Positions 1 to 30,308 of a stretch of DNA of 32,000 bases are shown one piece after another. Position numbers and translations under genes: made by a program. A model generated the notes under the pieces. It was given only the letters and a program-made list of their open reading frames with translations, was not told the origin of the DNA and did not search any database. Source of the stretch: Caldivirga maquilingensis IC-167 (GTDB taxonomy: Archaea > Thermoproteota > Thermoprotei > Thermoproteales > Thermocladiaceae); assembly GCF_000018305.1 (NCBI RefSeq), contig NC_009954.1, positions 750,001 to 782,000 of the forward strand, written 5' to 3'. How positions within the stretch are numbered: position 1 is the stretch's first letter; every line of letters starts with the position of its first letter.

Positions 1-269
1 CCTAGGTAAAATGCAGTTCTAGGCAGCATAATGGATCTAACTATTATCACGCCTTCAATTACCCCATTTTTCCTAACCGCCCTATATCCATCGGTGTCCT
101 TAGTCACTAACCCAAGTTCCCTTAGTCTTTCAAGGTGGTGGTATGCTTGGCCAGGACTTGATAAATCCAGGGCCCTCTGAACTTCTCTAATGCTCATGGC
201 CTTACCCTCCCTAATTAGGAGTAGGTAAACCCTTAATGTTGTTTCACCTAACTTAACCTCATCGTTCAC
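1..269 (-). CDS. winged-helix transcriptional regulator (ArsR/TrmB-like), N-terminal part; the gene runs off the left edge of the window
   Basis: Not in the ORF track because it is edge-truncated. The minus-strand frame from GTG at 269 reads VNDEVKLGETTLRVYLLLIREGKAMSIREVQRALDLSSPGQAYHHLERLRELGLVTKDTDGYRAV..., a typical wHTH pattern. An in-frame stop lies at 291-293. A TATA-like TTTATAA sits 22-29 nt upstream. Confidence 0.55.
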   Translation of the reverse strand, partial: MNDEVKLGETTLRVYLLLIREGKAMSIREVQRALDLSSPGQAYHHLERLRELGLVTKDTDGYRAVRKNGVIEGVIIVRSIMLPRTAFYL

Positions 270-4000: not shown

Positions 4001-4240
4001 TTAAGTCACTTCAACAGCGTACATGCCTGGCTTAGTTATATTTAACTCCTTGGCTATGCATGATTCCTCAGGGTTAAGTATGATTATTAATCCCCTCCAC
4101 TCCTCACTGAATTCAATGCCACCGCAGTTGGGGCATTGATTAACCTCATCAGGAACTATTAGCTTACACTTCCTGCATGCCTTAAATCCAGATAATGGCC
4201 TCCTCCTAGTCCTGCTCCTAGTAGCCCTACTCATTAGCAT
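4001..4240 (-). CDS. spt4: transcription elongation factor Spt4 (RNA polymerase subunit E'')
   Basis: The protein has a zinc ribbon (CRKC...CPNCG) followed by EEWRGLIIILNPEESCIAKELNITKPGMYAVEV. This is the characteristic archaeal Spt4 pattern. Confidence 0.85.
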   Translation of the reverse strand: MLMSRATRSRTRRRPLSGFKACRKCKLIVPDEVNQCPNCGGIEFSEEWRGLIIILNPEESCIAKELNITKPGMYAVEVT

Positions 4241-8883: not shown

Positions 8884-8909
8884 AAGCCTTAATAAATAAT
8901 TCGCCCATT

Positions 8910-8965
8910 AAATCACGCACCGCCGCACGGGGGGCCGCCATCCTAGACCACTAGACCACGGCCGC
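8910..8965 (-). tRNA. orphan tRNA 5' piece (acceptor 5' strand + D-arm + GC-rich tail); candidate split-tRNA gene fragment
   Basis: The minus strand reads GCGGCCG UG GUCU AGUGGUCUA GGAU G, then GCGGCCCCCCGUGCGGCGGUGCGUGAUUU. No T-arm or acceptor 3' strand lies nearby on either side. A tRNA-type promoter GGAAAAGC-TAATAAA is centred about -27. Confidence 0.5.
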
Positions 8966-9925: not shown

Positions 9926-9985
9926 CTAAGTGATGAGACCTTAACCGAATGAGACTGGTGATTAAGAACCCATGCTTACTGATTA
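9926..9985 (+). ncRNA. candidate C/D box sRNA
   Basis: C box GTGATGA 9930-9936. 12-nt guide. D' ATGA 9949-9952. C' GTGATTA 9958-9964. 14-nt spacer. D box CTGA 9979-9982. TATA TTAATAA lies at -29..-23. The second spacer is 2 nt longer than the usual 12. Confidence 0.45.
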
Positions 9986-10839: not shown

Positions 10840-10916
10840 GCCCCGGTAGCTCAGCCTGGGAGAGCACCCGGCTGAAGACCGGGGGGTCCCGGGTTCAAGT
10901 CCCGGCCGGGGCACCA
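10840..10916 (+). tRNA. tRNA-Phe (GAA), CCA encoded
   Basis: Manual cloverleaf: GCCCCGG UA GCUC AGCCUGGGA GAGC A CCCGG CU-GAA-GA CCGGG GGGUC CCGGG UUCAAGU CCCGG CCGGGGC A CCA. Promoter GAAAAGC-ATAAAAA lies at about -30. Confidence 0.95.
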
Positions 10917-13561: not shown

Positions 13562-13622
13562 AAAAAAGCCCTGGGTATTGGTGATCGGCGCCGTATACTT
13601 GACCGGGCTATACTACCGGGGC
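13562..13622 (-). tRNA. orphan tRNA 5' piece (acceptor 5' strand + D-arm + tail + oligo-T); candidate split-tRNA gene fragment
   Basis: The minus strand reads GCCCCGG UA GUAU AGCCCGGUCAA GUAU A, then CGGCGCCGAUCACCAAUACCCAGGGC UUUUUU. No anticodon loop or T-arm is present. Promoter GGAAAGC-TTATTTAA is centred about -27, and the unit ends in a T6 terminator. Confidence 0.5.
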
Positions 13623-13698
13623 TAACACCCACTATGTGCTTGGCTTAAATAAGCTTTCCGCAATGTAATGCTTAATAGGGTTTAGGTTCAGCATCCTC

Positions 13699-17478: not shown

Positions 17479-17586
17479 GGGGCCGTAGTCTAGCCTGGCT
17501 AGGATGCCGGCCTGGGGGGCCACCCCCGTATTGAAATTGACCCGGTGCGCCGGTGATCCCGGGTTCAAGTCCCGGCGGCCCCACCA
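17479..17586 (+). tRNA. tRNA-Pro (GGG) with an intron of about 30 nt at the canonical 37/38 position, CCA encoded
   Basis: GGGGCCG UA GUCU AGCCUGGCUA GGAU G CCGGC CU-GGG-G [intron about 17518-17547] C GCCGG UGAUC CCGGG UUCAAGU CCCGG CGGCCCC A CCA. Promoter CAAAGC-TTAAATA lies at about -30. The exact intron borders are ambiguous within a G run. Confidence 0.9.
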
Positions 17587-30146: not shown

Positions 30147-30308
30147 CTTTCTAATCCCTTTTGGGATTTACGATTCCCTATGGAAAACTTCATGATGAGA
30201 ATCCAGGAGCACTTTCTAATCCCTTTTGGGATTTACTCCTCGGTGGCTGCTGCAGTCTACCTTATTGCGAATAAGAAGGAGCACTTTCTAATCCCTTTTG
30301 GGATTTAC
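30147..30308 (-). CRISPR. mini-CRISPR array: 3 identical 25-nt repeats and 2 spacers
   Basis: The plus-strand repeat CTTTCTAATCCCTTTTGGGATTTAC occurs at 30147-30171, 30212-30236 and 30284-30308. Spacers are 40 and 47 nt. On the minus strand the repeat reads GTAAATCCCAAAAGGGATTAGAAAG, with the GAAAG 3' end typical of crenarchaeal repeats and an internal 6-bp hairpin AATCCC/GGGATT. The AT-rich leader lies on the 30309+ side. Confidence 0.8.

Follow-up and report, generated by a model that had tools for sequence, protein, structure and literature searches.

Why should a stretch of DNA that resembles only the first quarter of a tRNA gene carry its own promoter-like box and end in a run of T residues? 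The question is raised by a locus, here called fragment B, in a 32,000-nt stretch of DNA that was analysed as a whole (the window). Two flanking proteins match ABW01565.1 and ABW01567.1 exactly; both belong to Caldivirga maquilingensis IC-167, which has a chromosome (CP000852) of 2,077,567 bp. By direct sequence reading, the minus strand from 13622 to 13562 is GCCCCGGUAGUAUAGCCCGGUCAAGUAU-ACGGCGCCGAUCACCAAUACCCAGGGC-UUUUUU, and the reading given in the original prediction, including its T6 end, proved exact. The unit had been taken there for the 5' gene of a split tRNA. We conclude with high confidence that it is the 5' gene of the split (trans-spliced) tRNA-Glu(UUC) of C. maquilingensis IC-167, on the evidence of congeneric partner genes, of the cloverleaf obtained on joining and of reviews in which the case is already a published one. 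In every sequence-level respect that can be tested, the locus looks like the 5' gene of an archaeal split tRNA.

The unit can be parsed from end to end. The candidate promoter (13645-13659, minus strand) comprises a BRE-like GGAAAGC (13659 to 13653) and a TATA-like TTATTTAA (13652 to 13645), and the box ends 22 nt before G1. The same arrangement, RAAAGC followed by an A/T octamer that ends 22-26 nt before +1, is found in the window at the intact tRNA-Phe, tRNA-Leu and tRNA-Pro genes and at a second partial unit, fragment A, in agreement with the earlier remark that GGAAAGC-TTATTTAA matches the tRNA promoters of the window. Downstream lies a 28-nt 5' exon, GCCCCGGUAGUAUAGCCCGGUCAAGUAU (13595-13622, minus strand; G1 is 13622), corresponding to tRNA-Glu(UUC) positions 1-25. 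It contains the acceptor 5' strand GCCCCGG, U8 and A9, and the D-stem GUAU/GUAU with D-loop AGCCCGGUCAA, in agreement with the acceptor 5' strand and D-arm recognized earlier. Direct reading places the closure of the D-stem exactly at U25, because of which the exon is 28 nt and the trailer 27 nt in length.

The whole trailer, ACGGCGCCGAUCACCAAUACCCAGGGC, runs from 13594 to 13568 on the minus strand, its last 26 nt mapping to 13568-13593, and it falls into two parts. The proximal part, ACGGCGCCGAUCACCAA (13578-13594, minus strand), consists of a first A, the last nucleotide of the 3-nt bulge A24-U25|A in which the 5' splice site lies, and of the pairing strand CGGCGCCGAUCACCAA. The distal part, UACCCAGGGC (13568-13577, minus strand), is an imperfect complement of the 5' acceptor strand and is not conserved. 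Oligo-T runs are terminators of archaeal transcription, and the T6 run read at 13562-13567 (minus strand) is likely the transcription stop. Judged at the level of motifs only, fragment B would be an independent transcription unit with a promoter and a terminator of its own. Neither ARAGORN nor the Rfam tRNA model, even at E<=10, scores fragment B as a tRNA, as is to be expected because it contains only a quarter of one; at the same threshold the Rfam model gave no partial match at fragment A or B.

Genes of this kind have been described in this organism before. Fujishima and co-workers reportedly found, in 2009, ten fragmented tRNA genes that are separately transcribed and trans-spliced into six tRNAs, and they are said to have verified the expression and the joined products experimentally. 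According to reviews (PMC4390854, PMC4090602), the C. maquilingensis tRNA-Glu(UUC) is built from separately transcribed genes, the split sites being 25/26 for Glu(UUC) and 29/30 for Ala, with a shared 1-25 fragment in the tri-split tRNA-Gly; the splicing endonuclease of C. maquilingensis is also reviewed as processing its split tRNAs. Since the D-arm closes at U25 and the published split is at 25/26, fragment B is the 5' piece. It shares with the split tRNA-Glu(UUC) of IC-167 (Fujishima et al. 2009, PNAS 106:2683) the organism, the isoacceptor, the 25/26 split, the predicted separate promoter-driven transcripts and the complementary trailer and leader that would join at a BHB-like (bulge-helix-bulge) junction, and no difference is known. 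Fragment B is almost certainly the same gene, and hence already known, an identification based on the reviews and on organism, isoacceptor and split position all agreeing exactly, as distinct from a comparison with the published coordinates.

A 5' gene calls for a partner, and the original prediction had specified one whose leader is complementary and whose acceptor 3' strand is CCGGGGC. The 32-kb window contains no intact tRNA-Glu and no partner, its only complete tRNAs being Phe, Leu and Pro; a mismatch search, an acceptor/T-loop regular expression and a duplex scan of the window found nothing that pairs with the trailer other than fragment B's own antisense. Metagenomes were scanned with a specific pattern (the proximal-trailer complement with wobble, a gap of 27-57 nt, a T-loop and CCGGGGC), and exactly three matches were returned, each of them a leader joined to tRNA-Glu(UUC) 26-73. 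The architecture was the same in all three: an A/T-rich box belonging to the partner gene itself, a gap of 22-23 nt and a leader (U)UGGUG[A/G]UCGGCGCCG-GCUAA[A/G], in its fullest form UUGGUG[A/G]UCGGCGCCG. The body that follows, G-UGGGC-CUUUCGA-GCCCG-UGAC-CCGGGUUCAAAUCCCGG-CCGGGGC-A-CCA, represents positions 26-73 with the anticodon UUC, so that the congeneric partner can be summarized as the leader UUGGUGAUCGGCGCCG, then positions 26-73, ending CCGGGGC-A-CCA. L075, L076 and L080 each have a further copy upstream of, and divergent from, a phosphoribosyltransferase (PRTase) gene, and a truncated copy was found at the end of L079. Every gene with a trailer-complementary leader, at five or more loci, has the anticodon UUC. 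Both halves are present in the assembly GCA_049973695.1, in which contig 137 (L084) carries the 5' gene and contig 21 (L080) the 3' gene, and the exon and proximal trailer of IC-167 are identical to those of this assembly. The expected partner was therefore found, in congeneric genomes, with the complement limited to the proximal trailer; the idea that the whole 26-nt tail serves as the pairing strand did not hold, as only the proximal 16-17 nt pairs.

For IC-167 itself we infer the partner from the literature and from these relatives, which leave little doubt that it would be present, expected as GGTGATCGGCGCCG and then, within about 60 nt, GTTCRANNC-N4-CCGGGGC. Orthologues in IC-167 of the partner's neighbours, the PRTase and an NTP-transferase, were not among the homology search matches, and candidates for the IC-167 3' fragment that occurred only in Logan proved to belong to other lineages. 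No fragment was seen upstream of the PRTase orthologue of Vulcanisaeta distributa, and scans of viral contigs gave no match. A wobble-tolerant version of the distal trailer, CCRAYCACCAAYACCCARRRC, was also tried as a partner probe on genome contigs and discarded; it returned 64 chance matches in bacteria and none in an archaeon, because the distal part is not the conserved pairing strand.

The 3' fragments differ among the uncultured Caldivirga lineages. In lineage X the fragment has an extra, canonical 21-nt intron at 37/38 (AUGGGGUUUAACCCAGAAGUG) with a good BHB, as seen at L074 8185-8271 (minus strand) and L080 about 4021-4113 (plus strand), and the lineage Y copies (L072, L073, L075, L076) are without it. 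Because its 3' piece carries this intron, the tRNA-Glu of lineage X is both trans-split and cis-spliced. At L076 (about 1-66, minus strand) the T-stem 5' strand is CCAGGG instead of CCCGGG, leaving a mismatch; the variant may be real, or this short Logan contig may be misassembled.

When the exon 1-25 is joined to the congeneric exon 26-73, ARAGORN calls a canonical 75-nt tRNA-Glu(ttc) cloverleaf, and the single pieces are not called. In co-folds at 37 and 80 C, CGGCGCCGAUCACCAA pairs with UUGGUGAUCGGCGCCG in an intermolecular helix of 15-16 bp; the co-folds of all precursor pairs at both temperatures agree, and the acceptor stem forms between the two RNAs. The central helix pairs A21-G22-U23 with G-C-U and has an A.A mismatch at its fourth position, the bulges are the 3-nt A24-U25|A on the 5' RNA and A-R|G26 on the 3' RNA, and the outer helix is formed by G15-G18 with 27-31. 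A BHB at the junction had been anticipated, and what the co-folds predict is a relaxed rather than a canonical one, with three pairs plus A.A and an asymmetric 3-nt loop on the 5' piece; both predicted cuts lie 2 nt 3' of the central helix, at 25/26. A passage in one source (PMC5829648) states that non-canonical sites are cleaved only by heterotetrameric and epsilon2-type endonucleases, and Crenarchaea possess, according to a review, the heterotetrameric enzyme.

The intermolecular helix has also changed in a coordinated manner. The trailer reads ...GAUCACC in L081 and lineage X, relatives of IC-161, as well as in IC-167, and the corresponding leader, GGUGAUC..., occurs in L074 and L080; the lineage Y trailer, ...GACCACC, matches the leader GGUGGUC... 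of L072, L073, L075 and L076. There is thus a single compensatory change in the helix, U-A to C-G, between lineages X and Y, for which the U-A combination is shown inside one assembly (GCA_049973695.1) and the C-G combination is matched by lineage only.

Conservation of the 5' gene follows the same boundaries. Every Caldivirga locus fetched has a counterpart of fragment B in front of the His-phosphatase gene and divergent from it, the His-phosphatase orthologues being 81-84% and 67-68% identical in the Caldivirga lineages and 51% identical in Thermocladium. In Thermocladium modestius there is no fragment upstream of the His-phosphatase gene. Aligned as six distinct sequence variants, the Caldivirga loci have an invariant GAAAG-N-TTATTTAA (6/6), and the 28-nt exon is 100% identical across all orthologous loci. 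The next 16 nt of the trailer (ACGGCGCCGA-Y-CACCA) are invariant save for one U/C position, and directly past ...CACCA the conservation collapses. The equivalent of the T6 run is T5 in L081 and TTCTTCCC in lineage Y. The unit is not chance debris, as this pattern shows, with box, exon and 16 trailer nt preserved in six variants whose flanks diverge.

The genomic surroundings of the two pieces are partly variable. Beyond the tRNA-Leu gene, lineage X has genes for an IS605-type transposase and PaREP1 (L066/L067 1-3800), and the 3' fragment is accompanied by a HepT/MNT toxin-antitoxin pair in lineage X (L074 7233-8050) and by pyrD in lineage Y (L072 4355-5362). The sides toward the His-phosphatase and PRTase genes are stable, and the other neighbours of both tRNA-Glu pieces vary between lineages.

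A route from this locus to a functional tRNA can be proposed. As the motifs suggest, the BRE/TATA promoter of fragment B would start transcription at or next to G1 and the T6 run would stop it, yielding a transcript of about 55-60 nt made up of positions 1-25 and the 27-nt trailer. A second gene elsewhere, modelled for IC-167 on its relatives, would supply the leader UUGGUGAUCGGCGCCG-GCUAAR followed by positions 26-73, and this second transcript would carry the anticodon UUC, the T-arm, CCGGGGC, the discriminator A and an encoded CCA. In the co-folds the proximal trailer would anneal to the leader over 16 bp, the acceptor strands would pair and the junction would adopt the relaxed bulge-helix-bulge. 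Going by the literature, the crenarchaeal heterotetrameric endonuclease would then cut both bulges 2 nt 3' of the central helix, and an RNA ligase would join U25 to G26 to give the canonical 75-nt tRNA-Glu(UUC).

Other explanations have to be set against trans-splicing. One is that a tRNA gene was wrecked by rearrangement or internal deletion and left only its 5' end, fragment B, as inert debris, with an intact tRNA-Glu(UUC) serving the cell. The silence of the standard tRNA finders would fit this, as would the distal trailer of the subgroup designated lineage Y1, which resembles a decaying tRNA 3' end and may therefore descend from a damaged full-length copy. However, debris would hardly keep its box, exon and pairing strand invariant next to a flanking protein that is only 67-84% identical, with the adjacent bases diverging freely, and where the pairing strand does change, at a single position, the partner carries the compensating base. 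Furthermore, the partner genes are without positions 1-25 and so need fragment B, and reviews list tRNA-Glu(UUC) as trans-spliced in C. maquilingensis. We consider it very improbable that the locus is debris. Just as improbable is a self-contained structured RNA, a tRNA-like mini-helix with a role of its own (regulation, for example) instead of or besides that of a splicing substrate. Such a helix is conceivable since most lineages have a trailer whose 3' end can form pairs with GCCCCGG(UA) and the minimum-energy folds of the lone transcripts use this stem, but the lone IC-167 fold is no better than those of shuffled sequences (z = -0.57; 49/200 fold as well) and the lone transcript is nearly unfolded at 80 C (-0.7 kcal/mol). 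The closing segment, moreover, has lineage-specific uncompensated changes and is essentially lost in L081 (CCCAAGC).

The identity of the tRNA could likewise be questioned. The D-arm type GUAGUAUAGCC-GGUC-AGUAU is common to crenarchaeal Asp and Glu tRNAs, a point in favour of fragment B belonging to a different tRNA (Asp or Gln) as its 5' piece, or of its being common to several isoacceptors like the piece in the tri-split tRNA-Gly. Sharing has precedents in C. maquilingensis, where reviews describe shared Ala and Gly fragments. The first guess from the sequence had itself been a Glu/Asp/Gln-type tRNA, and it was narrowed to Glu by the genes with trailer-complementary leaders, in all of which the anticodon is UUC; besides Gly, only tRNA-Glu(UUC) is listed in the literature as split at 25/26. 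A different or shared tRNA is accordingly given very little credence, and a second partner in IC-167, such as one with CUC, is possible. Fragment B was also considered as a copy of the tRNA-Phe(GAA) gene at 10840-10916 (plus strand) of the window, with which it has in common the acceptor stem GCCCCGG/CCGGGGC and the first 10 nt; this was rejected as the D-arm differs.

The distal trailer may bear on the origin of the split. In most lineages the 7-10 nt that precede the stop signal are able to pair with the 5' acceptor strand, and lone transcripts fold in this way, the segment taking the forms CCGGGGC, CCGGAGC, CCGGGGU, CCAGGGC and CCCAAGC (L081). A selected self-closing stem was nevertheless rejected, given the uncompensated changes, the shuffle-level fold and the near absence of structure at 80 C. 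In lineage Y1 (L068-L070, L082/L083) the distal trailer aligns with the T-loop and 3' end of a tRNA (UUC--AAAUCCCGGCCGGGGC vs UUCUAAAAUCCC--CCGGGGC), with p values of 0.0005 and 0.008 against shuffles. For IC-167 the corresponding p is 0.25, its distal trailer being too short and too changed to show the likeness. We tentatively suggest, as a possibility that is rather less than even, that the distal trailer UACCCAGGGC and U6 are the decayed T-loop, T-stem 3' strand, acceptor 3' strand and terminator of a full-length, intron-containing tRNA-Glu gene, and that the split arose by duplication and complementary internal loss, not by a break inside the intron. Under such a scheme, one copy would have kept exon 1-25 and the 5' arm of the intron, and the other would have kept the 3' arm and positions 26-73 and gained a promoter. 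If so, the Caldivirga lineages would capture successive stages in the decay of a tRNA 3' end, and the intact ancestral gene would have had a 25/26 intron ACGGCGCCGAYCACCA...UGGUGRUCGGCGCCGGCUAAR, with the distal trailer ancestrally UUCAAAUCCCGGCCGGGGCA. As a weaker alternative, a transient self-closure of the 5' quarter would be the reason why the remnant persists.

Among known systems, the closest relative of fragment B within the organism is the 5' quarter of the tri-split tRNA-Gly(UCC/GCC), which has the same 25/26 break, size class, promoter design and pairing trailer. The Gly piece, however, is common to two isoacceptors and needs both 26-37 and 38-73, whereas the Glu piece has one partner (26-73). 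Fragment A (8905-8965 of the window, minus strand) reads GCGGCCGUGGUCUAGUGGUCUAGGAU and then GGCGGCCCCCCGUGCGGCGGUGCGUGAUUUAAU, with a box GAGGAAAAGC-TAATAAA that ends 22 nt before G1. The likeness between the two fragments that had been pointed out extends to the promoter design and to a D-arm also closing at 25, and from its sequence fragment A is probably the shared 1-25 piece of the tri-split tRNA-Gly(UCC/GCC).

The split tRNAs of Nanoarchaeum equitans (Randau et al. 2005) resemble the Caldivirga case in their distant halves, G+C-rich trailer/leader helix, relaxed BHB and heterotetrameric endonuclease. They are interrupted within the anticodon arm or loop (37/38, 30/31, 32/33), whereas the break at fragment B is between the D-arm and position 26, and in the N. 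equitans tRNA-Glu one 3' half serves two 5' halves. The recently split tRNA-Asp(GUC) and tRNA-Lys(CUU) of the Desulfurococcales (PMC3218864) are also trans-spliced crenarchaeal tRNAs with promoter-bearing halves, a BHB and a long stem, but there the two halves adjoin or are separated by a few kb, with the split at 37/38 or 30/31, and the Caldivirga halves are on different contigs or, in the case of the IC-167 partner, would lie outside the 32-kb window. The supplements of that study (Chan et al. 2011) contain no Caldivirga data. The non-canonical cis-introns of the Thermoproteales offer a further comparison, in that the trailer and leader together amount to a long hairpin intron opened in its loop; the cis-introns are covalently continuous, whereas the Caldivirga Glu pieces are without continuity and each has its own promoter. 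Reviews note that the intervening sequences of split tRNAs resemble the introns of relatives at the same positions.

Whether tRNAs were built up from smaller pieces or broken up secondarily is debated, and split tRNA genes are relevant to this question; among free-living organisms, C. maquilingensis is the reference case. Gene and mechanism were published in 2009 and nothing at the locus is categorically new. What is new is comparative: the syntenic split, the compensatory change, the combination of cis-intron and split in lineage X and the possible fossil of a tRNA 3' end. Because several uncultured Caldivirga lineages share the syntenic positions, the 25/26 split predates their divergence. 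The fossil, if true, would favour a late origin by duplication and degeneration.

The window has a few other features of its own. The tRNA-Pro(GGG) gene at 17479-17586 (plus strand) contains a 30-nt intron and is found by Rfam and by the intron option of ARAGORN, and it is missed by ARAGORN at its default. A CRISPR array begins near the window end, with repeats at 30147-30308 (plus strand) that match Rfam CRISPR-DR17 at 42.5 bits, just above the gathering score, and are spaced 65-72 nt apart. At 9927-9983 (plus strand) there is a weak C/D-box sRNA-like match to Rfam sR5 (24.7 bits against a gathering score of 40, E 0.011), in which UGAUGA and CUGA boxes are recognizable.
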